Shown here piece by piece: positions 5,901 to 25,249 of a stretch of 64,000 nucleotides of DNA. The first letter of the stretch is position 1; each line of letters opens with the position of its first letter. The translations under genes and the position numbers were made by a program. The notes under the pieces are model-generated. The model made no database searches and was not told where the DNA came from. It worked only from the letters and a program-made list of their open reading frames with translations. Origin of the DNA: an uncultured Actinomycetes bacterium (GTDB taxonomy: Bacteria > Actinomycetota > UBA4738 > HRBIN12); NCBI GenBank assembly GCA_963850315.1, contig CAWKKN010000007.1:71222-135221 (forward strand), written 5' to 3'.

Positions 5901-6410
5901 ATGACCAGGCCCGATCTCGAAGACGCGTTCAGACATCACGTGTGGGCGACGATGCGCCTGATCGACGCCTGCATGCCGCTGACCCAGGAGCAGCTCGCAA
6001 GCCCGGTCCCCGGGACGTACGGCTCGGTTCTCGACACCCTCCGGCACCTCGTGGGCTCGGACTCGTGGTACCTGTTCGTGATCGGTGAAGAGCACACGGC
6101 TCGCATCGAGGAAGACATCATGCAGCTGCCGGACCTCCGGGAGGCCATGGAGCGCGACGGATCGGAGTGGTCGGCGATCCTCGCGGAAGGGCGCGACCCG
6201 GATTCCGTCGTCGTCGCGCATCGATCCGAGGGGACGGACGGCCACGCACCCCTGGGGATCCGGCTCGCGCAGGTGTTGCACCACGGCACGGATCATCGGA
6301 GCCAGATCTGCACCGGACTCACCGCGCTCGGGATCGAACCCCCTGACATCGACGTTTGGGCCTTCGGTGAGCTGGACGGCCGCGTCTTCGACACCCCACG
6401 CGGCTCCTAG
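5901..6410 (+). CDS. DinB/YfiT-like (DinB_2) putative metal-dependent enzyme
   Basis: 169 aa. Motifs HHVWATMRLIDAC...TLRHLVGSDSWY...HHGTDHRSQI are typical of DinB_2 four-helix bundle proteins. Confidence 0.75.
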   Translation: MTRPDLEDAFRHHVWATMRLIDACMPLTQEQLASPVPGTYGSVLDTLRHLVGSDSWYLFVIGEEHTARIEEDIMQLPDLREAMERDGSEWSAILAEGRDPDSVVVAHRSEGTDGHAPLGIRLAQVLHHGTDHRSQICTGLTALGIEPPDIDVWAFGELDGRVFDTPRGS

Positions 6411-11435: not shown

Positions 11436-11972
11436 ATGAAGCGAACTCAGCGCGTTCCGGTACGGCTGCTTGCGGTGATCGCCGCCGCGCTGGGGATCCT
11501 CGCTTTCGGGGGTTGGTTGAGCGCGAACGCGGGAGCTCCCGGTGCGGCCGGGTCGACCTCCTCCTTGACGTGGTGCTGCGGCGGCGGGTCGGCTCCCGGG
11601 ATCACGGTGACGGGTCAGGCCACGGTGCACGGACGGGGCACGTCTGCGCGCGACGACGCGATCGCCCGCGCGGTCGCCGACGCCACGGATCAGGCGAACG
11701 CGGCCGCTCACGCCGCCGGCATCACGCTCGGCACGATCGTGGACATGCAGGTCTCCGCGCCACCGTACCCGTACGCGGTCCCCGAACCGGCGCTCCGCGC
11801 CAGCGCGAGGATCCCACCGACCGCTCCCGTGCCGGGATCGGCCTCGGGAGGGTCGTCGGGGTCGGGAACGTCGGCGAGCGCGTGCCCGATGTCGGGACCC
11901 TGCGTGCCCGTGGGCGTGGCGCTGCCCTTCGAGGCCTACGCGAGCGTCACGATCACCTGGTCGATCGCCTGA
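11436..11972 (+). CDS. SIMPL (DUF541) domain secreted protein
   Basis: ATG 11436 preceded by GAAGGAG. Signal peptide MKRTQRVPVRLLAVIAAALGILAFGG. The body reads ITVTGQATVHGRGTSARDDAIARAVADATDQANAAAHAAGITLGTIVDMQ...SVTITWSI, which is SIMPL-like. Confidence 0.65.
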   Translation: MKRTQRVPVRLLAVIAAALGILAFGGWLSANAGAPGAAGSTSSLTWCCGGGSAPGITVTGQATVHGRGTSARDDAIARAVADATDQANAAAHAAGITLGTIVDMQVSAPPYPYAVPEPALRASARIPPTAPVPGSASGGSSGSGTSASACPMSGPCVPVGVALPFEAYASVTITWSIA

Positions 11973-12003
11973 GCTGAGCGAGCATCCGCCATACTCGTCG
12001 GCG

Positions 12004-13347
12004 ATGGCCGCCGATGCGCTCCGCTCGACCGTCGCTGGTCTGATGCCTGAGATCCTCGCGGACCTCCAGACGATGGTGGAGATCCCTTCGATCGCCTTCC
12101 CCGGCTACCCCGAGGAGCCCGTCCGGCGCATGGCTTCCACGGCCGTGGAGTTGCTCCGCGCCGCCGGGTTCACGAACGCCGCCGCCCAGGACGTGCCGGA
12201 GGGCTACCCACCGATCTTCGCGGAGGTGGCCGGACCCCCGGGATCGTCAACCGTCATGCTCTACGCGCACTACGACGTGCAGCCCGCGCCACCGGAACAG
12301 AGATGGGCCTCGGATCCCTGGACCGCCGTGCGCAAGGAGGACGGGCGGATCTACGGCCGCGGCGCGGCCGACGACAAGAGCGGTCTCGCCATCCACATCG
12401 GCACGATGAAGGCGTTCCGCGGGACGCCCCCCTGCACGGTGAAGCTCATCGTCGAAGGCATGGAGGAGACGAGCAGCAACCTCGAGGCCTTCGTGCGGGC
12501 GCATCCCGAGATGTTCGGATGCGACGTCTTCGTCATCGCCGACATGGGCAACCTCGAGGCGGGCGCACCGGTGCTCACGACGACGTTGCGCGGCGAGGTC
12601 GCCTGCACCGTCAGGCTGAGAACGTTGGAGCACCCGCTGCACTCCGGCACGTTCGGGGGTCCCGTGCCGGACGCGCTCATGGCACTCGCCCGCCTGCTCA
12701 CCACGCTCCAGGACGACGCGGGAGATGTCGCGATCGAGGGCGTCACGGTCTTCGAGCGCGACGGCGCCGTGTTCTCCGAGGACGCCCTGCGTGCGGGCGC
12801 GGACCTGCTGCAGGGGGTGGAGCTCGTCGGCAGCGGACCGGTGGGAGCGCGGTTGTGGTCGCGGCCGAGCATCAGCGCGATCGGCATCGACGCCCCCTCG
12901 ATCGCCGGATCGTCGAACGCCCTGCTGCCCGAGGCCGAGGCGAGGGTCTCGATGCGGATCGCCCCCGGCTCGGACCCGGAGCGGGAGCTCGACGCCCTGG
13001 TGCGCCACCTCGAGTCCCACGCACCCTGGGGAGCGCAGGTCGAGGTGACGAGGGTGCGGGCCTCTCCTGCGTTCGTATGCGCGAGGGGCGGCCCCGGCCA
13101 CGCCACCGCTCGACAGGCCCTCGCCGATGCCTACGACCGCGACGCCGGCGAGGCCGGCTCGGGGGGCACGATCCCGCTGCTGCAGACGCTCCAGGCGGTC
13201 GCTCCGGGAGCTGAGTTCGTCCTGTGGGGAGCCGAGGATCTGGCACGCTCGCGCATCCACGCTTCCGACGAGAGCGTCGACCCCGACGAGATCGAGCGGC
13301 TGATCCTGGCGCAATGCCTCCTGCTGGAGTACGTCGCGGGCTCCTGA
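12004..13347 (+). CDS. M20-family peptidase (dipeptidase/ArgE/DapE-like)
   Basis: 447 aa. Motifs YAHYDVQP, GRGAADDKSG, IVEGMEETSS and a C-terminal dimerisation region, typical of M20. Confidence 0.85.
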   Translation: MAADALRSTVAGLMPEILADLQTMVEIPSIAFPGYPEEPVRRMASTAVELLRAAGFTNAAAQDVPEGYPPIFAEVAGPPGSSTVMLYAHYDVQPAPPEQRWASDPWTAVRKEDGRIYGRGAADDKSGLAIHIGTMKAFRGTPPCTVKLIVEGMEETSSNLEAFVRAHPEMFGCDVFVIADMGNLEAGAPVLTTTLRGEVACTVRLRTLEHPLHSGTFGGPVPDALMALARLLTTLQDDAGDVAIEGVTVFERDGAVFSEDALRAGADLLQGVELVGSGPVGARLWSRPSISAIGIDAPSIAGSSNALLPEAEARVSMRIAPGSDPERELDALVRHLESHAPWGAQVEVTRVRASPAFVCARGGPGHATARQALADAYDRDAGEAGSGGTIPLLQTLQAVAPGAEFVLWGAEDLARSRIHASDESVDPDEIERLILAQCLLLEYVAGS

Positions 13348-13517
13348 AAACGTTCGGAACCGGACGCCATCGAAGGGGGGGTTTCGTCCTTGCCTTGACG
13401 AATCCTTCAGCGGAGTGCCACCTTCGGGTCATCGAGGACGAGGTGGCGAGGATCCTCCCCGGCGTCGAGCGCGGGCGGTAGACCGAGTCCTCTCCCCATC
13501 GGCACTACCCTTGATCG

Positions 13518-13706
13518 ATGCGATCGCTGCGCCTGATCATCGGGGTGGTACTCATCATCGTCGGCGGCGTGTGGATCCTGCAGGGCGCCGGCTGGCTCAA
13601 GGGAAGCTTCATGACCGGCCAATCGCGCTGGCTGATCATCGGCATCGTCTGCGCTGTGCTCGGCCTAGGTCTCCTGCTGACGACGCTGCGCCCCACCCGA
13701 CCCTGA
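13518..13706 (+). CDS. Small two-TM membrane protein
   Basis: 62 aa, two hydrophobic helices, followed by an interrupted GC hairpin at 13710-13735 (possible terminator). Confidence 0.4.
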   Translation: MRSLRLIIGVVLIIVGGVWILQGAGWLKGSFMTGQSRWLIIGIVCAVLGLGLLLTTLRPTRP

Positions 13707-13709
13707 TCC

Positions 13710-13735
13710 CCCGCGAAAAGCTTCTCGTTTGCGGG
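13710..13735 (+). terminator. Possible intrinsic terminator hairpin after small membrane protein gene
   Basis: cccgcGaaa-agcttctcg-tttgcggg: an 8-bp interrupted stem directly after the stop at 13704-13706. No U-tract, as is common in high-GC actinobacteria. Confidence 0.2.
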
Positions 13736-13814
13736 TATCAACGTTGCTCAAGTTCGCGCCGATGCTTGCTGTGGGGAAGAGGTGTGACTCATCGCACGTG
13801 AGGACGGACGAGAG

Positions 13815-14252
13815 ATGACACGGGTGCTCGTGATCGACGACGAACCCGACGTGCTGCTGCTCTGCCGGCTGAACCTGGAGCACGCCGGACACGAGGTGCT
13901 GCAGGCGCTGGGCGGGCAGGCGGGCCTGAGGCTGGCGCGCGAGCAGCACCCCGACGCCATCGTGCTGGACCTCATGATGCCCATGATGGACGGCCATGCC
14001 GTGTTGGCGGCGCTCCAGGAGGACGAACGCACGCGCGACGTCCCCGTCGTGGTGCTGACCGCCAAGGTCCGTCTGGAGGATCGCGTCCGCAGCTGGCGGG
14101 ACGGGGCGTCGGACTTCGTCACGAAACCCTTCCGACCGGAGATCCTGCTGGACACCCTGAACCGCGTCACCTCCATGAGCTCGGACGAGCGCGCCGCACG
14201 CCGCGTTCATGTACTTCGGGAGCTCGACTTGGGACGTGAGGTCGAGGTCTAG
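13815..14252 (+). CDS. Single-domain response regulator (REC only, CheY-like)
   Basis: 145 aa. VLVIDDEPDV...DAIVLDLMMPMMDG...VVVLTAK places the phospho-acceptor Asp and Lys at the expected positions. No output domain. Confidence 0.85.
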   Translation: MTRVLVIDDEPDVLLLCRLNLEHAGHEVLQALGGQAGLRLAREQHPDAIVLDLMMPMMDGHAVLAALQEDERTRDVPVVVLTAKVRLEDRVRSWRDGASDFVTKPFRPEILLDTLNRVTSMSSDERAARRVHVLRELDLGREVEV

Positions 14253-14779
14253 CCGCCGGACGTCGTGGCGTAGTCCGCGCCGAGGACCACGACGACCTGC
14301 ACGCTGTTGACCACTGAGCTCGCGAAGTCGGAGCCGAGCAGAGCGACCTTCGCTCCCTTGAAGAACGAGTCGGCGACCTGCTGCGCGTCCGCCTGGTTCT
14401 GTGCGGCCTTGGCGCCCCCCCGGTAGTAGATGGTGGTCTTCGCGATGCCCGGCACGGGCGAGTTGGCCGGCGCCTGGCCCGAGACGTAGCCGCCGGTCGT
14501 GAGCTGCTGGTCGGCCTGGGCCGCGAGTCCGGCGGAGTTCGTGCCGTTGAACACCGCCACCGTCACGTCTTTAGGTGGCTGCGGGCTCGGCAGCCCGGCG
14601 GTGGTTCCCCCGGCGCTGACCGTTGGGCTCGGCGAACGGTGATGATGATGATGCGGGGTGGCGCTGGGCGAAGGGCTTGCGGTGGCGACCCCGCCGCCCG
14701 AGAAGCCGTTCGCGAGGATCGCGATGCCCCCGGCGACGAGCGCGATGATGACGACGATCCGTCCGGTGCCCAGGTTCAC
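14249..14779 (-). CDS. LytR_C (LytR cell-envelope-related C-terminal) domain membrane-anchored protein
   Basis: N-terminal TM (IVVIIALVAGGIAIL), a Pro/Ser linker with HHHHH, and a C-terminal VTVAVFNGTNSAGLAAQ...VVVVLGADY typical of LytR_C. Confidence 0.7.
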   Translation of the reverse strand: MNLGTGRIVVIIALVAGGIAILANGFSGGGVATASPSPSATPHHHHHRSPSPTVSAGGTTAGLPSPQPPKDVTVAVFNGTNSAGLAAQADQQLTTGGYVSGQAPANSPVPGIAKTTIYYRGGAKAAQNQADAQQVADSFFKGAKVALLGSDFASSVVNSVQVVVVLGADYATTSGG

Positions 14780-14819
14780 GGCGCCATCCTAGCGCACGGT
14801 CGTGGGCGAACCCCCGGGC

Positions 14820-15149
14820 CTACAGGCGGACGCCGAGGGTTCCGGCCACGCGGCGACGCCGTCGTGCCTCGCGGACCCGGCGCAGCCGGCGCACGAGCAT
14901 CGGGTCGTAGACGAGGGCCTCGGGTCGTTCCATCAGACGGTTCAGCAGCTGGTGGTAACGCGCCGGCGAGAAGCCGAACCGCTCACGGATCGCTCGCGCC
15001 TTGGGCACGCCCAGGCGCCAGCTCTCCCGTTCGAAGTCCAGGATCTGGCGGTCTCGGTCGGACAGCGGCGCCGCCTCCGCCGACCGCTCGCGCGCCGCTA
15101 GTCCACCCATGAGCCGAGGCTCGCAGACGGAGGTGCCCGGTTCAAGCAC
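14820..15149 (-). CDS. DUF3263 domain protein
   Basis: LSDRDRQILDFERESWRLGVPKARAIRERFGFSPARYHQLLNRLMERPEALVYDPMLVRRLRRVRE matches the actinobacterial DUF3263 family. The true start may be the internal M at 15110. Confidence 0.7.
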   Translation of the reverse strand: MLEPGTSVCEPRLMGGLAARERSAEAAPLSDRDRQILDFERESWRLGVPKARAIRERFGFSPARYHQLLNRLMERPEALVYDPMLVRRLRRVREARRRRRVAGTLGVRL

Positions 15150-15210
15150 CCGCGGTGGCGGTCCGACACCTCAGGTAGGGACCCGTTGGGACCTGTGAGA
15201 GCATCGCCTC

Positions 15211-17415
15211 GTGAGGAGCAAGAATCCCTTGGTGACCGAAGAGGTGGCAGACCAGGATCCACCGATCGATCGGTTCCGCTCGGTCGCCCAGCTCAACATG
15301 CTCCACAGCCTCGCGGCGAAGCTGAACGCGCTCGGCGATGTGGAGGAGATCGGCGCGGCCATCACGGCCGAGCTCCGTACGATCATCGACTACCACAACT
15401 CCCGCGTGTACCTGCTCCAGCCCGACGGCAACACGCTTATGCCCGTGGCGTTCCGCGGGGAGCTCTTCAAGGACTACGAGCAGGAGACGCTGGAGGACCT
15501 CATCACGCCGATGGGCGAAGGGCTCACCGGACGCGTCGCCCAGACCGGACGCTCGCTGATGACTCCCAACGCGCAGGAGCTCGACTTCGCCATCCAGATC
15601 CCCGGCACCGACGACATCGTGGAGTCGATGTTGCTGGTCCCCATGAAGCTCGGCGACCAGGTCACGGGCGTGATCGTGCTGTCGAGCCTGGGCTACGGCA
15701 AGTTCGACGAGGAGGACCAACGACTGCTGGAGGTTCTCGCATCCCATGCCGCCGTGGCCTTCGAGAACGCGAAGCTCTTCCAGTCCGCGCGGGTGGCGGC
15801 CGAGACCTCCCGCGCCCTGCTGCGACTCTCGCAGGCGCTCACGGGCTCGCACACGATCGGCGACATCCTGCAGCAGGCCATCGAGGCGGTGCCGACGCTC
15901 GTGACGTGCTCGACCGTGGGGGCCTACGTGCGAGAGGCGGAGACCGGCCGGTTCAAGCTGGCCCGCATCCAGGAGGTCCTGCCCGGCGCGATGCGCTCGC
16001 GCGCGTCGATCGCCGACATGCCTTCGGAGGTGGCCGAGGAGCTGCGGATGACGGGATCGGAGCCCTACCTGGTTCCGGCCGAGGTGGCCGGCGGGATCCC
16101 CTCGGAGCTGTGGTTCGCGCACGAGCCCGGGGAGGTCCTGATCGCCCCCCTCTCGTGGGAGCCGGACGGCTTCGGAGCCCTCGCCCTCACCACGATGAGG
16201 GCCGGCACCGGCTTCGACGAGGGAGATCTGCGCCTGGCGCGCGGGATCGCGGACATCACGTCGTTGGCGATGGGGAACGCGCGCCGTCTCTCGGAGTTGG
16301 AGCGGTTCCATGAGCTCGTCGAAAGCCTGGACGCCGTGTTCTGGGAGGCCGATGCCCGCACGCTCACGCTCACGTACATCAGTGGCCGGGCGGACCAGCT
16401 GCTCGGCCACGGGGCAACGGGCTGGCCGGCCGAGGGCAAGCAGTGGGGCGATCACATCGCCTCGGACGACCGCCCGCAGGCATTGGCCTCCAGCCGCACC
16501 GCCATGGACGGCGAGGAGGACCACAGCCTGGAGTATCGTGTCGTGACGCCCGACGGCGAGGTGATCTGGATCCGCGACCTGATCCACGTGGTGCGCGGTG
16601 CGCAGGGGCCGCGCCAGCTGCGCGGCCTCATGGTGGACGTCACCGAGCGCAAGCGCGCGGAGCAGGCGCTGCAGCAGAGCGAACGCAAGTACTCGGAGGC
16701 CTTCCGGCGCGAACGGGAGGCATCGCAGCGCCTGCGCGCCCTCGACGAGATGAAGAACACCTTCCTGGAAGCGGTCTCCCACGACCTGCGCACCCCGCTC
16801 ACCTCGATCCTGGGCTCGGCGCTCACGCTGGAACAGGCCCAGCTCGACCTGCCGAAAGAGGACGCCCTCGACCTTCTGGGCCGCATCGCCGCCAACGCCC
16901 GCAAGCTCGAGCGCCTACTGTCGGACTTGCTGGACCTCGACCGGCTGCAGCGCGGGATCGTGTCACCGCAACGCCGGCCCACCGACCTGCAGGACCTGAT
17001 CCGCCGTGGCGTCGCCGAGACCGAGAACCACGGAGGCCACGTCATCGAGGTGGAGGTGGAGCCCGTCATCGTGTCGGTCGATGGCGCCAAGGTCGAACGC
17101 ATCTTCGAAAACCTGCTCTCGAATGCGATCCGCCACACGCCGCCCGACACGAGGATCTGGGTCCGGGGACAGCGAGCGGACGGGGGCGTCGTGCTGGCGG
17201 TGGAGGACGAAGGCCCGGGAGTGCCGCCCGAGCTGCACGAAGCCGTCTTCGAACCGTTCCGTCAGGCGCCGGGCTCGGCCGCGGAGCACTCGCCGGGCGT
17301 CGGCGTGGGGCTCTCGCTGGTCCTTCGCTTCGCCGAGCTCCACGGCGGCCGCGCGTGGCTGGAGGACCGCCCCGGCGGCGGCGCGTCGTTCAAGGTCTTC
17401 CTGCCCGGCGCGTAG
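15211..17415 (+). CDS. Sensor histidine kinase with tandem GAF domains and PAS domain (HisKA + HATPase_c)
   Basis: 734 aa. GAF signatures, a PAS region (TLTYISGRADQLLGH...EYRVVTPDGEVIWIRD), the H-box EMKNTFLEAVSHDLRTPLTSI and an ATPase domain. GTG start at 15211. Confidence 0.85.
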   Translation: MRSKNPLVTEEVADQDPPIDRFRSVAQLNMLHSLAAKLNALGDVEEIGAAITAELRTIIDYHNSRVYLLQPDGNTLMPVAFRGELFKDYEQETLEDLITPMGEGLTGRVAQTGRSLMTPNAQELDFAIQIPGTDDIVESMLLVPMKLGDQVTGVIVLSSLGYGKFDEEDQRLLEVLASHAAVAFENAKLFQSARVAAETSRALLRLSQALTGSHTIGDILQQAIEAVPTLVTCSTVGAYVREAETGRFKLARIQEVLPGAMRSRASIADMPSEVAEELRMTGSEPYLVPAEVAGGIPSELWFAHEPGEVLIAPLSWEPDGFGALALTTMRAGTGFDEGDLRLARGIADITSLAMGNARRLSELERFHELVESLDAVFWEADARTLTLTYISGRADQLLGHGATGWPAEGKQWGDHIASDDRPQALASSRTAMDGEEDHSLEYRVVTPDGEVIWIRDLIHVVRGAQGPRQLRGLMVDVTERKRAEQALQQSERKYSEAFRREREASQRLRALDEMKNTFLEAVSHDLRTPLTSILGSALTLEQAQLDLPKEDALDLLGRIAANARKLERLLSDLLDLDRLQRGIVSPQRRPTDLQDLIRRGVAETENHGGHVIEVEVEPVIVSVDGAKVERIFENLLSNAIRHTPPDTRIWVRGQRADGGVVLAVEDEGPGVPPELHEAVFEPFRQAPGSAAEHSPGVGVGLSLVLRFAELHGGRAWLEDRPGGGASFKVFLPGA

Positions 17416-17478
17416 CCGGGACGTCTTCCTGCCCGGCGCGTAGCCGGGACGTCTTCCTGCCCGGCGCGTAGCCGGGAC
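17395..17478 (+). repeat. Three perfect tandem copies of a 28-bp unit gtcttcctgcccggcgcgtagccgggac, each containing a hairpin (cccggc-gcgta-gccggg)
   Basis: Copy 1 is 17395-17422 and overlaps the kinase stop codon TAG at 17413-17415. Copy 2 is 17423-17450 and copy 3 is 17451-17478. The P450 start GTG follows at 17495. Confidence 0.9.
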
Positions 17479-17494
17479 GCGCTACCGTAGCGAA

Positions 17495-18718
17495 GTGGAG
17501 CGAGCCGCGCCGCCCGACCTCGGGTTCCGCCCCCAGGATCTGAGCTTCATCGCCGATCCGTACCCCGTGTATGAGGAGTTGCGGGCGAAGGCGCCGCTGC
17601 ACCTCGACGAAGCGACGGACCATTGGCTCGTCTCGCGGTACGAGGACGTCAACGCGCTCCTGCGCGACCGTCGCCTCGGGCGCACGTATCGGCATGTCGC
17701 GACGGATGAAGAGATGGGGCATCCTCCGCCCGATCCCGCGCTGCGACCATTCTGGCACCTCATCGAACACGGCATCCTCGACATGGAACCGCCCACCCAC
17801 ACGCGGGTACGGCGCCTCGTCGCCAAGGCCTTCAGCCCCAAGATGGTCGAGTCGATGCGCGCCCCGGTTCAGCGGCTCATGAACGGCCTCATCGACGAGG
17901 TGGAAGGGAGCGCGCCGTTCGACCTCATCTCCTCGCTCGCCGAGCCGCTCCCGGTCGCCGTGATCGCGGAGCTGCTGGGCGTCCCGGCCCCCGACCGCGG
18001 GCTGCTGCGGCCGTGGTCGGCCGACATCTGCCGGATGTACGAGCTCCACCCCGGTCCGCAGGACGAGCGCATCGCGGTCCGGGCATCGATCGAGTTCTCC
18101 GACTACCTGCGGGCCCTCTCGCGTCAACGGCGTTCCCGGCCCACCGGCGACCTCATCAGCGAGCTGGCGCAGGTGGTGGACGACGGCGAGCGCCTCACCG
18201 AGGACGAGTTGATCGGCACGTGCGTGCTCCTGCTCAACGCGGGCCATGAGGCAACGGTGAACGTCACGGGTAACGGATGGAGGGCCTTGCTGCGCAACCC
18301 CGAGCAGCTCCAGCGGCTACGGAGCGATCCGTCGCTCACCCCCCGCGCGGTCGAGGAGCTGATGCGCTGGGACACGCCGCTGCAGATGTTCGAACGCTGG
18401 TCGCTGGAGGGCGTGGAGGTGCACGGCGTGACGGTGCCACGTGGCGCCGAGTTCGGGCTCCTCTTCGGCTCGGCGAACCGCGACCCCGGCGTGTTCGACC
18501 GGCCCGACGCCCTGGATGTGAGCCGCGAGCCTAACCCCCATCTCACGTTCGGGGCCGGGATCCACTTCTGCCTGGGCGCGCCGCTGGCCCGACTCGAGCT
18601 CCAGACGTCGTTCGCCTCCGTCGTGCGCCGGATGCCGCGGCTCGAGCTCGTCGAGCCGCCGCGCTGGAAGCCGAACTACATCATCCGCGGTCTCGAATCG
18701 CTGATGGTGCGTTCCTAG
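17495..18718 (+). CDS. Cytochrome P450
   Basis: 407 aa. Heme-binding loop FGAGIHFCLGAPLARLE, the I-helix AGHEAT and the EXXR motif (ELMRWDTP). Confidence 0.9.
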   Translation: MERAAPPDLGFRPQDLSFIADPYPVYEELRAKAPLHLDEATDHWLVSRYEDVNALLRDRRLGRTYRHVATDEEMGHPPPDPALRPFWHLIEHGILDMEPPTHTRVRRLVAKAFSPKMVESMRAPVQRLMNGLIDEVEGSAPFDLISSLAEPLPVAVIAELLGVPAPDRGLLRPWSADICRMYELHPGPQDERIAVRASIEFSDYLRALSRQRRSRPTGDLISELAQVVDDGERLTEDELIGTCVLLLNAGHEATVNVTGNGWRALLRNPEQLQRLRSDPSLTPRAVEELMRWDTPLQMFERWSLEGVEVHGVTVPRGAEFGLLFGSANRDPGVFDRPDALDVSREPNPHLTFGAGIHFCLGAPLARLELQTSFASVVRRMPRLELVEPPRWKPNYIIRGLESLMVRS

Positions 18719-18724
18719 GTCTCG

Positions 18725-18798
18725 AGCCGGCGGTCGGATTCGAACCGACGACCTAGCGATTACAAATCGCTTGCGCTACCGGACTGCGCCACGCCGGC
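18725..18798 (-). tRNA. tRNA-Thr (anticodon UGU)
   Basis: Reverse complement GCCGGCGTGGCGCAGTCCGGTAGCGCAAGCGATTTGTAATCGCTAGGTCGTCGGTTCGAATCCGACCGCCGGCT. It folds as a cloverleaf with anticodon loop UUUGUAA, a 7-bp acceptor stem and a TPsiC arm GGTTCGAAT. CCA is not encoded. Confidence 0.85.
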
Positions 18799-19659
18799 GT
18801 CGGCGTCGAGTCTACCCGTGCCCTCGGGCGAGGGCGGGGGCGGACGCGACACCAGCACGTAGCCGTAGAGGGCGGCCGCGAGCGACGCCGATGCGTTGAG
18901 CGATCGGACCCGGCCCCGCACGGGCAACGCCACGAGCGCGTCGCAGCGCTCCCGCGTGAGGCGCGCCATACCCTCCCCCTCGCTCCCCACGACGACCGCG
19001 ACGCGACCGGGCGGGCAGGCGTCGTCGTAGATCGTATGCGGAGCCTCGCCGTCGAGGCCCACGACCCAGAACCCCACGTCCTGGAGGCGTTCGATCGCCC
19101 GCGCGATGTTGGCCACGCGAGCGTGGGGCAGGTGCAGCAGCGCACCCGCCGAGGCACGGATCGCGGCGGCGGTGACGTCGGCGGCTCGCTTCGTCCGCGT
19201 CACCAGCATCGCGGCACCCGCCGATTCGGCGGAGCGCGCCGCGGCGCCGAGATTCTGCGGATCCGTGATGCCGTCGAGGATCGCGACGACGGCGTCGTCG
19301 GTGAACGGGAAGTCGGCCAGGTCCCGTTCCGAGAGCTCGGGCGCCGGAGACCCTCCGTGTGCGCCCGATCCGATCCGTGCCACGACGCCCTGATGCTCGG
19401 CGGCCATGGCATCGAGCTTCGCGCGGGGAACGATACGCACGGGCACGTCGGCGCGCTCGGCCGCGTCCAGCACGGAACGCATGCCCTGTGTCGGTTTCGG
19501 TGAGGCGATCACCAGGATCTCGCGCGCGGCGCCGCTGCGGATCGCCTCGGTGACGGCGCGCCGCCCCGTCACGAGCGTGGCATCGGCGCCGGTCGCGCGT
19601 CGTGGGCCGCGGCGCCGATCGCGGTCGGACGTCACATCAGCAGGGCGACGGCGAGACAT
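18760..19659 (-). CDS. rlmB: 23S rRNA (guanosine-2'-O)-methyltransferase RlmB (SpoU/TrmH family)
   Basis: Start ATG 19659 (MSRRRPADV...) with an Arg-rich N-terminal extension as in actinobacteria. SpoU motifs VVGSEGEGM...LNASASLAAALY. The frame has no stop until it has run 39 nt into tRNA-Thr. Confidence 0.8.
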   Translation of the reverse strand: MSRRRPADVTSDRDRRRGPRRATGADATLVTGRRAVTEAIRSGAAREILVIASPKPTQGMRSVLDAAERADVPVRIVPRAKLDAMAAEHQGVVARIGSGAHGGSPAPELSERDLADFPFTDDAVVAILDGITDPQNLGAAARSAESAGAAMLVTRTKRAADVTAAAIRASAGALLHLPHARVANIARAIERLQDVGFWVVGLDGEAPHTIYDDACPPGRVAVVVGSEGEGMARLTRERCDALVALPVRGRVRSLNASASLAAALYGYVLVSRPPPPSPEGTGRLDADAGVAQSGSASDL

Positions 19660-20114
19660 CCGATGCCGTCTCCGCTCAGCCCCAGTCCTTCCGGCCGGGT
19701 CGCCTTCACCGAGACCCGGTCGGTTCCCACACCGAGGACCGCCGCCAGGTGCGCCCGGATCTCGTCTCGGCGGGGGGCCAGCGCGGGACGCTCGCAAACG
19801 ACCGTCATGTCGCAGGACGACACCGAGCACCCCGCGCCACGCACGGCTGCCACGGTACGCGAGAGCAGCTCCGTGCCCGCGAGGCCGGCGGTCGACGGAT
19901 CCGTGTCGGGGAAGTGATCGCCGAGGTCGCCGAGCCCTGCTGCACCCAGGAGTGCGTCGGCGAGCGCGTGGCAGACGGCGTCCCCGTCCGAGTGTCCCGC
20001 CAGCCCGTCCTCGCCTTCGAAGCGGACACCGCCGAGCCACAGCTCCCGTCCCCTCGCCCAGGGGTGCACGTCGAACCCCAGTCCGACACGCGGCGCCCTG
20101 CCCCCCTCAGGCAC
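19632..20114 (-). CDS. ispF: 2-C-methyl-D-erythritol 2,4-cyclodiphosphate synthase
   Basis: GTG 20114 overlaps the ispD stop. Motifs RVGLGFDVHPW...GHSDGDAVCHALADALLGA...LGDLGDHFPD. 160 aa. Confidence 0.85.
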   Translation of the reverse strand: MPEGGRAPRVGLGFDVHPWARGRELWLGGVRFEGEDGLAGHSDGDAVCHALADALLGAAGLGDLGDHFPDTDPSTAGLAGTELLSRTVAAVRGAGCSVSSCDMTVVCERPALAPRRDEIRAHLAAVLGVGTDRVSVKATRPEGLGLSGDGIGCLAVALLM

Positions 20115-20814
20115 CGGGACCGCCGATCCTGGACTCGGCGCGGGCCAGGTCGAGGAACGTCGTGATCTTGAAGTTCTGCGCGTCGCCCGCCACCGCTTGG
20201 ACCGTGCCTCCGGCGAGCTCCAAGAGGGCCGCGTCGTCGGTGACCTCCAGATCCGAGCCCTCGGCACGGTTGTGGGCACGTCGCAGCGCGTCGACCCGGA
20301 AGGCCTGCGGCGTCTGCGCCAGCACCAGCTCCTCGCGGTCGAGGGTCGAGACCACGACGCCATCGTGCACACGCTTCACGGTGTCGGCGACCGGGATCAC
20401 CGGGATCGCCCCGACGGCGCCCGCGACCACGGCCGCGATCACGGCCGTGAACAGGTCCGGCGGGGCGAACGGCCGGGCGGCGTCGTGCACCGCGACGATG
20501 TCGACGTCGTCACCCAGGACCGCGAGCGCCGCGCGGACCGAGGCCTGCCGGGTGGCGCCGCCCGGCACCACCGTGACCGGCTTGCCCAGGAACTCCACGC
20601 ACCCAGCGGCGCGCTCCTCCAAGCCGGGAGGTGCGGTCACGATGAGGGATGACACCGACGGCGAGGCTGCCGCCGCGGCCGCCGCCACGGCAAGCAACGG
20701 TCGGTCCCCGATCGTCACGAACGCCTTGGGACCGTCGGCGCCCAGGCGCCGTCCCGCCCCCGCAGCCAAGACGATCGCCGCCGCCTGCGGCCGCTCCGAT
20801 GATTCGCTCCCCAT
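20107..20814 (-). CDS. ispD: 2-C-methyl-D-erythritol 4-phosphate cytidylyltransferase
   Basis: AAIVLAAGAGRRLG...VAVHDAARPFAPP motifs. The start could be 20814, 20832 or 20841. Confidence 0.8.
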   Translation of the reverse strand: MGSESSERPQAAAIVLAAGAGRRLGADGPKAFVTIGDRPLLAVAAAAAAASPSVSSLIVTAPPGLEERAAGCVEFLGKPVTVVPGGATRQASVRAALAVLGDDVDIVAVHDAARPFAPPDLFTAVIAAVVAGAVGAIPVIPVADTVKRVHDGVVVSTLDREELVLAQTPQAFRVDALRRAHNRAEGSDLEVTDDAALLELAGGTVQAVAGDAQNFKITTFLDLARAESRIGGPGA

Positions 20815-20903
20815 AGGGCAAGCATCGCACATGCCCCTCACGGCTTCGTCGGTCGGGCACGGACGGCGAGACCTGGTCCTGCCGGGCGGCTCGCAACGGC
20901 GTG

Positions 20904-21983
20904 TCAGACGTCGACGCCGGCCTCGGTGGCGAGCGCGGCGAACACCATCCGTCCGGTGGTGGTCTGGATCACGTTCGTGACCCGTACCTCCACGGTGGTG
21001 CCGATCCGGTCGTCGGCGCGCTCCACGACGACCATGGTGCCATCCTCGAGGTAGCCGACGCCCTGGCCGTGCTCGCGCCCCTCTTTCACGAGCCGCACGG
21101 TGATCCCGTCGCCGGCCGTGACGGGGACCCGGAACTTCGACGCGAGGGCATTGATCTGTGCGACGGGGACCCGAAGGGCCTCGGCGACCTTCGCAAGGTT
21201 GTGATCCACCGTGATGAGGGACGCACCTCGCTCGCGAGCCAGGCGCACGAGCGCCGCGTCAACGTCCATCACCCCTAGCTCCTCCACCAGCTGGAACTGG
21301 ATCGTCGGCGCCTTCTGCAGCTCGACCAGGATGTCGAGGCCGCGGCGTCCCCGGCTGCGCCGGCCCGGATCCGACGAGTCGCTGATGGCCTGCAACTCGC
21401 GGAGCACGCCATCGTGCAACAAGATCGTGCCGCTCACGAATCCGGTCGCCACGAGGTCCGCGATCCGTCCGTCGATCAGGGCGCTCGTGTCGACCACGTA
21501 CAGATCGCCTCTGGACGAGGCGGCGGAGGCGCGCGGCTTCATCCCGACCAACGCGAAGATGTCCTCGTGCTTGGCTGCGCCCAGCCGGTACCCGAGCGAT
21601 CCCAAGACCAGATACAGGAACACGATGGCCGGCCACGCGATCGTGGCGGGAACGAAGATGAGCGGGATCATCATCAAGCCGGACACGATCAGCCCGATCA
21701 CGAGGCCCACGACGCCGCCGGCGATCTCCGGCGCCGGTTTGCGCCGAAGCTCTCGCTCCATGCCCGTGACGGCGCGCAGGGTCAGGCGTCCCATCACGCC
21801 CCCGATGACGAACCCGGTCGCGGCGCCCAGGAAGATGAACGACAGCGCCCGGCTCGTGCTCTCGTCCGCGTAGGAGGCCCCGATCTGGAACCCGGCGGTG
21901 CCGAGCAGGGCGATGAAGATCAGGCGAACGCCCTCGACCAAGCGCCCGCGCAGGCTCCCCGCCCGGGGCTCCTTCTCGCTCAT
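20904..21983 (-). CDS. PIN/TRAM-domain membrane protein (YacL-like)
   Basis: N-terminal TM helices, a PIN domain (LYVVDTSALIDGRIADL) and a C-terminal TRAM-like barrel. It sits between carD and ispD, as yacL does in Firmicutes. Confidence 0.75.
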   Translation of the reverse strand: MSEKEPRAGSLRGRLVEGVRLIFIALLGTAGFQIGASYADESTSRALSFIFLGAATGFVIGGVMGRLTLRAVTGMERELRRKPAPEIAGGVVGLVIGLIVSGLMMIPLIFVPATIAWPAIVFLYLVLGSLGYRLGAAKHEDIFALVGMKPRASAASSRGDLYVVDTSALIDGRIADLVATGFVSGTILLHDGVLRELQAISDSSDPGRRSRGRRGLDILVELQKAPTIQFQLVEELGVMDVDAALVRLARERGASLITVDHNLAKVAEALRVPVAQINALASKFRVPVTAGDGITVRLVKEGREHGQGVGYLEDGTMVVVERADDRIGTTVEVRVTNVIQTTTGRMVFAALATEAGVDV

Positions 21984-22157
21984 CTCCCTCGTGGTCCTTC
22001 CGACGATTGGCCGACGATCTCTGGCCGCCGATCCTTGGCCCAGCGATGTCGGGAGCAGTCGAACCCACCCCTATGGATAGGGTCATCGGCGCGCGTGGAA
22101 GGAAGCCTGAGCGAGAAGCTGAGCGGCGGCCGGGCGAGCCCGAGCCCCACGAACGAA

Positions 22158-22670
22158 CTAGTTAGCTTCGGCGACGACCTTGGCGCCGTGGGCACCGTCG
22201 AGGACATCGTCGATCATGACCTCGGCCTGGTCCTCCGACTTGCCGGTGGCGTGGGAGAGCTCCGAGATCAGGATCTGGCGGGCCTTCGTGATCATCCGCT
22301 TCTCCCCAGCCGACAACCCCTTCTCGCGGTCGCGGATGGAAAGGTTCCGCAGGACCTCGGCCACCTGATAGGGATCGCCTGAGTGCAGCTTCTCCATGTT
22401 GTTCTTGAAGCGCCGGCTCCAGTTGGCCGCCATCGAGGATTCCTCCTCGGTGAGGACCTTCAGGACCTTCTTGACCTCGTTCTTGCTGACGACCGAGCGC
22501 AGACCCACCTGCTCGGTGGAATCCGTCGGGATCATGAGCGTCAGATCGCCGTAGGCGACCCTCAGTACGAGGTAGGTCCGCTTCTCCCCGAGGAATTCCT
22601 TCTCACGCAGTTCTTCGATGACTGCCGCGCCATGTTCCGGATGCACCACTGTGTCGCCCTTGCGGAACAC
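22158..22670 (-). CDS. carD: RNA polymerase-binding transcription factor CarD (CarD_CdnL_TRCF family)
   Basis: MFRKGDTVVHPEHGAAVIEEL...: the N-terminal RNAP-interacting domain and a C-terminal helical domain. 170 aa. Confidence 0.9.
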   Translation of the reverse strand: MFRKGDTVVHPEHGAAVIEELREKEFLGEKRTYLVLRVAYGDLTLMIPTDSTEQVGLRSVVSKNEVKKVLKVLTEEESSMAANWSRRFKNNMEKLHSGDPYQVAEVLRNLSIRDREKGLSAGEKRMITKARQILISELSHATGKSEDQAEVMIDDVLDGAHGAKVVAEAN

Positions 22671-22843
22671 GAAACCTCCCCTGGGAAAAGCACGGGAACC
22701 TCGGCTCGACCGTCTGGAGCCGGGACATCTATGACTGGTGACAGGCTAACACGGACCCGCCTTGCGACGCAACCCAAAACCGCAGGTCAGAGGCCTAACG
22801 GAGGGGGAACGTGGTCCGTCTGACCTAGTTCTTGCGGGGTGAG

Positions 22844-24229
22844 TCAGGCGGCACCGCGGCGAGTTCCAGCAGGTGGGAGCGCCCAACCCAGGGCATCGAT
22901 GATGTGGCGGACGGGGATCACGCGAAGACCCTCGGGTCGCTCGGCCGGCCCGAGGGCGGAGGCCGCGGCCGGAGCGTAGACGGCGGTGCAGCCGCCCGCG
23001 CGGGCGGCCGAGAGGCGCTGCACCAGACCGGGAGCCGAACGAACGAGACCGGTGAGCGCCACCTCACCCACGAACGCAGCGCCCGCCGGAGGCGGCCGTC
23101 CGGTCGCGGCCGAAACGAGCGCCGCCGCGACGGCGAGGTCACAGGCGGGATCGTCGAGCCTGATCCCTCCCGAGGAGGCGCCGAAGAGCTCCGATCGTCC
23201 CAGCGGCATCCCGGCGGCGCGATCGAGCACGGCCGCGACCAGCTGGAACCGCCGGGCGTCCAGGCCGGTGGTCTGACGGCGGGCAGGGCCATCGGACGTC
23301 CCTACCAGGGCCTGCACCTCGACGGCGAGGGCCCGACGTCCCGACCGTGGCAGGGCCACCGCCGCGCCCGGCACGCGCTCTCCCGAGATCAGCAGGCCCG
23401 TAGGGTCGATCGGGCGCAGGCCCGCCTCGCCCATCTCGAACCACGCCGTCTCTCCCTCGGGCCCGAACCGGTTCTTGCCGCCGGAGAGCACCCGCAGCCC
23501 CGACCGCGGCTCTCCGTCGAAGCCGAGCACGACGTCGACGGCGTGCTCGAGGCTGCGCGGCCCGGCGAGATCGCCGTCCTTCGTCACGTGGCCCGTCATC
23601 AGCACCGCGATCCCCTGCGCCTTCGCGATCCCGACCAGCGCATCCGTGCAGATCCGCACCTGGGACGCCCCACCCGGCATCTGGGTGCCCCCGGATTCCC
23701 GCAGGGCCTGGATGGAGTCCACCGCGAGCAGGAAGGGTCCCGACCCACCGGCCGTCTCCAGCACCTGCTGGAGATCGCGCCCGGGGGCGAACGTCAGGGC
23801 CTCGCCCGCGATCCCCAGGCGCCGAGCCCGGGACGCAACCTGCGCGTGCGACTCCTCGCCGGATACGAGGAGACAGGACCGCCCGGTCGCCGACACCTTG
23901 GCGACGATCTGAAGCAAGAGCGTGGACTTGCCGATGCCGGGCTCCCCCGCCAGCAGCGTCACCGAGGCCGGAACGAGGCCGCCTCCCAGCACCCGGTCGA
24001 CCTCCTCGAAGCCGGTGGAGACCCGCTGATCGGCCTCGGGGGCAGCGCCGAGGCCGATCAGCGGGACGGGTACCACGGCCGTGTCGCCGAGCCGGCCGCG
24101 GCCTCGCGTCACGCTCGGCGCGAGCTCGTGGACGGTGCCCCAGCCCTCGCAACCGGGGCAACGACCGACCCACTGGGCAACCTGCTGCCCGCAGGCCGAA
24201 CACTCCAGGCGGGTCCTCGCCTTCACCAT
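22844..24229 (-). CDS. radA: DNA repair protein RadA/Sms
   Basis: Zinc finger CSACGQQVAQWVGRCPGCEGW, Walker A GEPGIGKST, a KNRFG motif and a Lon-like C-terminus. Start at MVKARTRLE (24229) preferred over the track start 24259. Confidence 0.85.
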   Translation of the reverse strand: MVKARTRLECSACGQQVAQWVGRCPGCEGWGTVHELAPSVTRGRGRLGDTAVVPVPLIGLGAAPEADQRVSTGFEEVDRVLGGGLVPASVTLLAGEPGIGKSTLLLQIVAKVSATGRSCLLVSGEESHAQVASRARRLGIAGEALTFAPGRDLQQVLETAGGSGPFLLAVDSIQALRESGGTQMPGGASQVRICTDALVGIAKAQGIAVLMTGHVTKDGDLAGPRSLEHAVDVVLGFDGEPRSGLRVLSGGKNRFGPEGETAWFEMGEAGLRPIDPTGLLISGERVPGAAVALPRSGRRALAVEVQALVGTSDGPARRQTTGLDARRFQLVAAVLDRAAGMPLGRSELFGASSGGIRLDDPACDLAVAAALVSAATGRPPPAGAAFVGEVALTGLVRSAPGLVQRLSAARAGGCTAVYAPAAASALGPAERPEGLRVIPVRHIIDALGWALPPAGTRRGAA

Positions 24230-24454
24230 GGGTCGCAAGGTAGCGGTCGGGTAGGACACGGCCCACGTGTATCCTTACGCCGGACGGTGCAAGAGGTGCG
24301 CCGCGAGACGATCGAAGGGAGTGATGAGGATGGCTGCGATCCGGGTCCTTCATATCGCACGTATTCCGCGTCCCTCCCGATCCGCCCAGCGCTAACCGCT
24401 CAGCCGAGCCGTCACGCGCCCCCGGCGCTTCCTTCGAAGGGACGTGGCATCTCC

Positions 24455-25249
24455 ATGTCACGGAACCCTTCAAGGGAGGCACCTGCGTTGCACGACGACA
24501 CGTTCGAGCACTTCATGGACGAAGGGCTCATCGAATCGATCATCCGTCCGATCCAGAGCGGCAAGGAGGCGTCGGTCCACCTGTGCCGCGCCGATCCGAG
24601 TACGAGCGGCGAGGCCCTCGTCGCGCTCAAGATCTATCACCCGCTGAACCGGCGGGACTTCCGCGACGAGGGCCTCTACCGCCACGGCGAGTGGATCAAG
24701 GAGCGCCGCGTCCGCGTAGCTCTCGAGAAGCGCACCACGTACGGCCGCCAGGTCCAGGGGGGGCTGTGGGTAGGTCGCGAATGGGAAGCGCTGCGCGCGC
24801 TCGCCTCGGCGAGCGTCCCGGTGCCCGTCCCACGGCCCATCGAACGCACCGACGAGGCGATCTTGATGACCTACGTCGGCGACCTCCAGAGTGCGGCGCC
24901 GCAGCTGCGCTCCTACCGCCCGCAGGACCCCGAGGAGGCTCGCGAGCTGTTCGATGAGGTGGTCCACGCCGTCGAGCTCATGTTGTTCAACGACATCGTG
25001 CACGCTGACCTTTCGCCCTACAACGTCTTGGTGTGGAATGGCCGTATCACGGTGATCGACCTGCCGCAGGCCGTGGACCCGCGCAAGAACAGCCACGCCG
25101 AAGCGTTCCTGCGCCGTGACCTCGAGCGGATCGTCAGCTACTTCGAACGGTTCGGCGTCTCCGCGTCCGCCGACGCCATCGCCGCCGACCTATGGACCGC
25201 CTGGACGTTCGCGGACCTCGTCCCCGAGGAGCTGCGCGGCCCGACGTGA
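24455..25249 (+). CDS. RIO1-family atypical serine protein kinase
   Basis: ATG 24455. Motifs SGKEASVHL (P-loop-like), LVHADLSPYNVLV and ITVIDLPQAVD (the RIO catalytic and metal-binding loops). It is the in-frame tail of a long spurious ORF antisense to radA. Confidence 0.8.
   Translation: MSRNPSREAPALHDDTFEHFMDEGLIESIIRPIQSGKEASVHLCRADPSTSGEALVALKIYHPLNRRDFRDEGLYRHGEWIKERRVRVALEKRTTYGRQVQGGLWVGREWEALRALASASVPVPVPRPIERTDEAILMTYVGDLQSAAPQLRSYRPQDPEEARELFDEVVHAVELMLFNDIVHADLSPYNVLVWNGRITVIDLPQAVDPRKNSHAEAFLRRDLERIVSYFERFGVSASADAIAADLWTAWTFADLVPEELRGPT

Follow-up and report, generated by a model that had tools for sequence, protein, structure and literature searches.

Three perfect tandem copies of a 28-bp segment over the stop codon of an actinobacterial histidine kinase gene, probably a neutral lineage-specific duplication

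A 28-bp segment at the 3' end of a histidine kinase gene of an uncultured Actinomycetes bacterium from soil is present in three perfect head-to-tail copies immediately upstream of a cytochrome P450 gene. The array is very likely a lineage-specific and probably neutral short tandem duplication (a locus of the minisatellite or VNTR type) with no dedicated function. Positions are those of the window, which is the whole 64-kb stretch of DNA that was analysed, and the features of the locus are:

15229..17415, + strand: coding sequence of a GAF-PAS-HisKA-HATPase_c histidine kinase; the public gene call (P0123) begins at TTG 15229, and the longest ORF runs from GTG 15211
17395..17478, + strand: 28-nt direct repeat in three perfect copies, numbered 1 (17395-17422), 2 (17423-17450) and 3 (17451-17478), with an identical array in strain L090 at 5901-5984
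17404..17420, + strand: hairpin 1, CCCGGC-GCGTA-GCCGGG, straddling the kinase stop codon TAG 17413-17415
17432..17448, + strand: hairpin 2 (duplicate), with TAG 17441-17443 in a second reading frame
17460..17476, + strand: hairpin 3 (duplicate), with TAG 17469-17471 in a third reading frame
17480..17488, + strand: extended -10-like box CGC-TACCGT, with the TANNNT hexamer at 17483-17488, 6 nt before the P450 GTG and outside the repeat
17495..18718, + strand: cytochrome P450 coding sequence, 407 aa, with a GTG start and no Shine-Dalgarno sequence upstream

The unit, GTCTTCCTGCCCGGCGCGTAGCCGGGAC, occurs three times at 17395-17478 with 0 mismatches, and TRF reported the array with a period of 28, 3.0 copies, 100% matches and a score of 170, the top score in the 64-kb window. 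The original prediction of three perfect copies was therefore confirmed both by reading of the sequence and by TRF. The base G17479 prolongs the 28-nt periodicity by one position, which leaves the phase of the repeat ambiguous by 1 nt, and the G17395/G17479 pair is the sole microhomology (1 nt) at the repeat boundary. At up to 3 mismatches the 28-mer was found at three sites in the window, all of them in the array (expected number 0, from 100 dinucleotide shuffles), and the pattern CCCGGC-N5-GCCGGG was found at 17404-17420, 17432-17448 and 17460-17476 only (expected number 0.09). The palindrome that had been predicted for every copy is indeed present at all three sites as a 6-bp stem with a 5-nt loop.

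The unit opens with the last six codons of the kinase (VFLPGA; 18 coding nt) and TAG, 21 nt in all, and ends with 7 nt of downstream sequence. Copy 1 had been said to encode the kinase C-terminus FLPGA and the stop, and the ORF does end in ...SFKVFLPGA* with TAG at 17413-17415. The accompanying statement that this stop sits in the loop of the first hairpin is nearly exact, as it holds for T and A, which are loop bases, and fails for G, with which the 3' arm begins. The HATPase_c domain of the kinase is already complete at the first stop, and the kinase protein is unaltered by the array because the stop codon falls in copy 1. The TAGs of the three copies lie in three different frames because 28 = 1 mod 3. 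Past the kinase stop the frames read APGRLPARRVAGTSSCPARSRDALP*, and a small ORF or a read-through extension was rejected on this reading and on the lack of a start codon in the unit (by inspection). When the longest ORFs of the kinase and the P450 were looked up by exact sequence, 0 matches were returned, and a look-up of the public kinase call (P0123) gave 0 contigs.

Comparison with related loci shows that the unit is native local sequence that was duplicated, and not an inserted or foreign element, because matches to it are confined to the orthologous kinase end, with one per locus. A kinase scan of GTDB genomes, one per species, gave 80 orthologous loci, and the species of the window was not in the collection scanned (best kinase match 75% aa identity). 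The hosts of these loci are MAGs of uncultured Actinomycetes or Actinomycetota, except for one binned as Planctomycetaceae and two labelled 'bacterium'. The kinase 3' end was readable in 79 of the 80 loci, in each of which it occurs once and encodes ...VFLPGG*, ...VFLPGA* or a variant of these; with L081-L084, L091 and L092 added, the total of single-copy kinase ends is about 85 orthologues. A single copy is also the state in the closest other relatives found, which have a kinase in the same 90% cluster (four members, namely the window and three others) or a P450 that is 84-89% identical. The kinase of L083 ends in ...TTCAAGGTCTTCCTGCCCGGCGCGTAG ahead of a different 48-nt spacer, and L083 contains the same 21 nt as the window, GTCTTCCTGCCCGGCGCGTAG, once. 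One copy each was found in L082 (80% identity) and in L081, L084, L091 and L092, and all near matches to the unit (up to 6 mismatches) in 1.04 Mb of related loci were at the orthologous kinase end, one per locus. A local single-copy source for the unit is thus found in the about 85 orthologous ends and in the identical 21 nt of L083. A long palindromic element occupies the spacer in L081, L084, L091 and L092; it was considered as a dispersed family and was found at the orthologous site only in the related DNA examined.

A search with the P450 protein led to P0134 (99% identity), which is encoded on ENA ERZ25039488 contig_20612 (L090; a 1.04-Mb contig). The window genes are on another contig of 406,982 bp, separate from L090. 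Alignment of L090 to window positions 11499-24539 gave 98.84% identity over 13,060 columns, with 114 mismatches and 38 gap positions, which identifies L090 as another strain of this species. It contains the same three perfect copies (the same 84 nt), and the SNPs closest to them lie at 17319 and 17572. A comparison of copy number in related strains had been proposed at the outset, and it returned three copies in the same-species strain, as in the window, and one in the other relatives. This distribution places the triplication before the divergence of the two strains and after that of their lineage from the closest other relatives found. At 0.88% substitutions, an 84-nt stretch would be expected to differ at only about 0.74 positions, and therefore the perfect identity says little: it is unremarkable and is evidence neither of constraint, a reading that was rejected on this expectation, nor of extreme recency. 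It had been taken to imply recent duplication, of which the duplication of local sequence stands and the recency is only relative, as the array predates a strain split at which 0.9% of sites differ (about 0.7 substitutions expected). A 14-nt tandem repeat at 22007-22042 shows a 17-nt difference between the two strains and serves as a positive control for repeat instability. Variation of copy number among strains, by which VNTR loci are recognized, was not seen for the 28-nt array, with three copies in both strains, a weak comparison at n = 2.

The P450 start had been placed 16 nt past the last copy, and this agrees with the GTG at 17495, which is also the start in the public gene call of this genome (P0252). 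The 16 nt that lie 3' of the array read GCGC-TACCGT-AGCGAA and are followed by the GTG. Across 31 P450-orthologue loci, taken in whether or not the kinase precedes, a TANNNT hexamer was located 6-7 nt before an in-frame start in 30 by script, and the 31st (L012) was alike by eye. In most loci the hexamer reads TACCGT or TACGGT, usually with CGN before it and with no Shine-Dalgarno sequence, and SRN-TANNNT-N6-7-start is the only conserved feature of the P450 upstream regions. Mycobacterial promoters and leaderless transcripts have TANNNT centred 7-12 bp before the transcription start, often SRN- or CGN-extended, and no -35 consensus (PMC3898074). The P450 upstream region appears to fit the description of a leaderless actinobacterial promoter (TANNNT about 6-7 nt before a start codon that is also the transcription start, no Shine-Dalgarno sequence), and the P450 mRNA is predicted to arise at a promoter of its own and to be leaderless, with G17495 as +1. 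A metagenome scan with the P450 N-terminus found relatives at 72-75% identity only, which are informative for the promoter motif alone. A tRNA-Thr gene lies on the minus strand, 6 nt beyond the P450 stop.

The P450 ORF, its start codon, the -10 box and all positions from -44 to +1 are the same as in the inferred single-copy ancestor, because copy 3 abuts the 16 nt that a single copy would. In the single-copy state the P450 promoter begins only 11 nt past the kinase stop. The net effect of the triplication is 56 extra nt in a spacer of unconstrained length (17 to about 335 nt among relatives), the distances from kinase stop to P450 start being:

L082: 17 nt
L083: 48 nt
Window: 79 nt, or 23 nt if reduced to one copy
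L084: about 135 nt
L092: about 335 nt

Folded singly, the unit forms a 6-bp GC stem closed by a 5-nt loop, with an energy of -13.6 kcal/mol for RNA and -8.1 kcal/mol for DNA. The fold of the whole array was not significantly better than that of shuffled sequences (z = -0.69 and -1.82), and its MFE and centroid structures disagree, so that discrete hairpins are not the dominant state. A consensus scan found 0 terminator-like sites and 0 sigma-70-like sites at the array; the sigma-70 model (TTGACA/TATAAT) is ill-suited to Actinomycetota, and the TANNNT criterion was used instead. An intrinsic terminator was defined as a GC-rich hairpin followed directly by a U-rich tract of 7-9 nt (PMC3993855), and of these two parts the array has the hairpin only, as the tail is ACGUCUUCC after hairpins 1 and 2 and ACGCGCUAC after copy 3, with no U-tract. 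Rfam gave nothing at the gathering score on the array and a single chance-level match (E = 3.2) at permissive thresholds. Inspection of both strands found no new TANNNT hexamer and no ATG, GTG or TTG start in the unit or at the junction, and a promoter newly made by the junction was rejected, since TANNNT is absent from the unit and across the GAC-GTC boundary on either strand.

The original prediction offered two functions for the array, stacked terminator or attenuator hairpins and a REP-like element, and neither is sustained. An insulator or terminator stack, in which the hairpins and the stops in three frames halt or slow the RNA polymerase and ribosomes that run out of the kinase gene and so shield the P450 promoter from read-through and occlusion, and for which the triplication was selected, is unlikely. 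The stability of each hairpin (-13.6 kcal/mol) speaks for it, as do the inferred promoter directly downstream, the TAGs at 17413, 17441 and 17469 in three frames and the same copy number in two strains. A computational study argues that hairpin clusters with gaps of <15 nt near stop codons (within about 80 nt) mark termination sites (PMC8355165), and the array has this geometry, with 11-nt gaps and all three hairpins no more than 61 nt from the stop, although the criterion is a geometric one only. Against these points, the array has neither a U-tract nor a terminator-like site, and purified mycobacterial RNA polymerase does not terminate in vitro at hairpins without a U-tract, even with NusA and NusG (PMC3993855). 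The array also folds no more stably than shuffled sequence and has conflicting MFE and centroid structures, the stops in three frames follow automatically from the length of the unit, and other relatives with the same gene pair all lack an array or any equivalent, some with spacers of 17-48 nt. Attenuation of the P450 gene is implausible because its transcript appears to lack a leader and to be driven by a -10 box that lies 3' of the array. The more specific proposal of a selected, species-specific insulator that uncouples transcription and translation of the kinase from firing of the P450 promoter is quite improbable; if it were true, short tandem duplication of a gene's own 3' end would be one way in which a new terminator or spacer can evolve rapidly. 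The regular spacing of palindromic cores upstream of the inferred promoter could also be read as three operator sites, in which the 17-bp palindrome near -27, -55 and -83 of the P450 start binds a dimeric regulator. This is very unlikely, as most relatives have no such palindrome here (an imperfect version is present in L083 only), half of it is coding sequence, it recurs every 28 bp, which is not a whole number of helical turns, and no regulator gene is specifically linked.

Insertion of a dispersed palindromic element of the REP, BIME or MITE kind after the kinase gene would account for a GC-rich palindrome right after a stop codon, in several copies and with a 28-nt length in the REP size range. 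It is barely credible, however, as 21 of the 28 nt are conserved C-terminal codons of the kinase and its stop, present in single copy in all orthologues, and the copies are strictly head-to-tail. The search for further copies that had been proposed as a check found neither the 28-mer nor the hairpin core elsewhere in the 64-kb window, the 1.04 Mb of related loci gave no match to the 28-mer outside the orthologous kinase ends, and a scan of metagenome contigs with the 25-mer TTCCTGCCCGGCGCGTAGCCGGGAC gave 0 matches. The many dispersed copies that characterize REP and BIME elements were thus not found across the window and the related loci, and the unit is not extragenic, its first 21 nt being kinase codons and stop. 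An assembly or polishing artefact is highly improbable. The source and the relatives are metagenome assemblies, L084 and L090 contain many ORF-breaking 1-nt indels, and both strain assemblies apparently come from one project and pipeline. However, the 84 nt are identical in a second strain that differs by 114 SNPs over 13 kb, and the assembly errors visible are single-base indels and not 28-nt duplications. An artefact is largely ruled out, and the array taken to be real, because the independently assembled L090 contig shows the same three copies.

For the preferred reading, a neutral tandem duplication, the mutational mechanism can be outlined in two steps. In the ancestor of the species, a tandem copy of the 28-bp segment at the kinase 3' end would have been made first, and a third copy added later. 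The first step may have been illegitimate slippage or a template switch at 1 nt of microhomology, possibly favoured by stalling of the polymerase at the GC hairpin over the stop codon, and the second, from two copies to three, would need one ordinary slipped-strand or unequal-exchange event. The array would be selectively neutral or nearly so and fixed by drift, and its copy number appears to have stayed at three from the divergence of the two sampled strains onward. These genomes normally, if infrequently, have small tandem duplications at gene boundaries, with comparable arrays at a few per Mb. TRF on 1.09 Mb (the window and the related loci) gave about ten arrays of period 12 or more in which identity was 95% or higher, and two or three of these are comparable to the 28-nt array. 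A 23-nt unit in 2.9 copies at L015 12575-12638 likewise spans a stop codon, that of a 524-aa ORF, and a 38-nt unit with a Shine-Dalgarno sequence is present in 3.6 copies in L016, 2.1 in L024 and about 2 in L018. Two observations count against neutrality. The array has three copies in both strains while the 14-nt repeat at 22007-22042 varies, which could hint at selection, and n = 2 cannot separate this from a low slippage rate. The hairpin-cluster geometry (PMC8355165) leaves room for a weak effect on kinase read-through.

With a short tandem duplication or minisatellite defined as a unit of about 10-100 bp that is present head-to-tail at least twice, the array belongs to that class. VNTR loci of this type arise and change by slippage or unequal exchange, and they usually have no phenotype and can affect neighbouring genes; ETR loci are used in the typing of Mycobacterium tuberculosis. 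The array is like the exact tandem repeats and VNTR loci of Actinobacteria in its perfect head-to-tail repeats, its restriction to one locus, its local origin and its position at a gene end and spacer (for the context of actinobacterial tandem-repeat loci, see PMC5403423). It differs from VNTR and ETR loci in its uncultured host, in its unit of 28 bp, compared with about 50-80 bp, and in having three copies in both strains where copy-number polymorphism is found in those loci. The array shares with MIRUs the arrangement of tandem repeats between co-directional actinobacterial genes and the overlap with the upstream stop codon. MIRUs form one sequence family at dozens of loci, with units of about 46-100 bp and short ORFs coupled to the flanking genes. 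In contrast, the unit described here is confined to a single locus, is not a multiple of 3 in length and contains no ATG, GTG or TTG (by inspection), and neither a family at multiple intergenic loci nor ORFs in phase were found in the window and the 1.04 Mb of related loci. REP and BIME elements are likewise GC-rich imperfect palindromes of 20-40 nt, placed just after stop codons and sometimes clustered, but they are extragenic, have tens to hundreds of dispersed copies and form clusters that usually alternate, whereas the array is mostly coding, at one locus and in direct orientation. Intrinsic, tandem and 'hairpin cluster' terminators also have GC-rich stem-loops in series no more than 80 nt past a stop codon; the array differs from them in the absence of a U-tract, in a first hairpin that contains the stop codon and in its lack of conservation at orthologous loci. 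A CRISPR array was considered in view of the 28-nt unit, the internal palindrome and the perfect repetition, and was rejected because the copies abut without spacers; the unit is moreover the end of the kinase gene.

The array is a new instance of a well-known type of feature and has little importance on its own. It may be regarded as a dated example of a tandem repeat born from the 3' end of a gene, with both neighbouring genes unharmed, the dating being from one copy in the closest other relatives found to three in two strains of one species. For annotators it is a warning against taking every perfect palindromic repeat of 28 nt for a REP element, a CRISPR or a terminator. The by-product of the analysis is judged more useful, namely the CGC-TACCGT-N6-start promoter, which is strongly conserved across 31 loci of uncultured Actinomycetota. 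The conserved motif fixes the start codon of the P450 gene and shows that the -10 region is the only constrained part of the spacer.

The start of the P450 gene, a GTG at 17495 on the forward strand, is preceded by a promoter-like core, which was defined by comparison across the related actinobacterial loci L001-L092.

17480-17497 of the window, promoter-like core of the P450 gene

The core, (A)CGC-TACCGT-AG-N4-ATG/GTG, is strikingly conserved before the P450 orthologue at 31 loci whose proteins share 60-100% identity, and no Shine-Dalgarno sequence was found at the P450 starts bearing it at these 31 loci. The conserved core and the missing Shine-Dalgarno sequence, both read from sequence, imply a putatively leaderless P450 mRNA. 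A short palindrome takes in the core in many loci, including the window, where it reads CGCTACCGTAGCG, and the core could by virtue of this placement also be a candidate operator.

The spacer between the histidine kinase and P450 genes contains a long imperfect palindrome in four close relatives of the window.

L084, 6186-6320, spacer palindrome
L091, 33-153, spacer palindrome
L092, 2076-2410, spacer palindrome
L081, 3922-4056, spacer palindrome

The L084 palindrome is 135 nt in length with a folding energy of -72.5 kcal/mol (z = -4.7), and the L092 spacer carries an additional nested palindromic insertion of approximately 200 nt with inverted repeats of 13-20 nt. Across the DNA searched, the palindrome was found only at the orthologous site and at no other location. 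Possible explanations for it are a large terminator, a structured RNA and what is left of a MITE-like insertion. Other relatives (L002, L003, L004, L005, L014, L015, L016, L018, L021, L022, L024, L026, L029 and L071) have a conserved double hairpin, CCGGGCGGCGGGGGGTAC(G/A)GCCGCCGCCCGG ... GCTCCCAGGGGGG..GGGAGC, located approximately 10-130 nt 3' of the kinase stop codon, which was looked for in the window and is absent there. Read on the opposite strand, both of its loops are C-rich (ACCCCCC and CCCCCCT), a likeness to the actinobacterial 6C RNA; an Rfam search of the double hairpin gave nothing at the gathering score and one chance-level match (E=0.37).

Downstream of the P450 gene, a tRNA gene shares sequence with the final ~13 codons of the longest methyltransferase ORF, and either the overlap is real or this ORF really ends elsewhere.

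18724-18798, minus strand, tRNA-Thr(TGT), located 6 nt past the P450 stop codon
18760-20040, minus strand, longest ORF of the SpoU-type methyltransferase

The related long contigs contain many single-base indels which fragment the kinase and P450 genes, affecting the whole locus in L090 (a second strain of the same species), 4001-7543 in L084 and 3960-4056 in L081, the last of which also ends in poly-G/poly-C junk. Both ORFs are intact in the window, which is therefore preferable to these contigs as a reference for this species.

Further short tandem arrays occur in the window and, with high identity and at gene boundaries, in related genomes.

22007-22042 of the window, 14-nt repeat TTGGCCGACGATCC, 2.4 copies, 80% match
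L015, 12575-12638, 23-nt unit, 2.9 copies, across a TGA stop codon
L016, 9075-9211, array of a 38-nt unit
L024, 9078-9158, array of the 38-nt unit
L018, 6430-6464, array of the 38-nt unit

The two strains differ at the 14-nt repeat, where the window is 17 nt longer than L090. The 38-nt unit bears an AAGGAG ribosome-binding site, lies immediately upstream of a minus-strand start codon, and differs in copy number among the three species.
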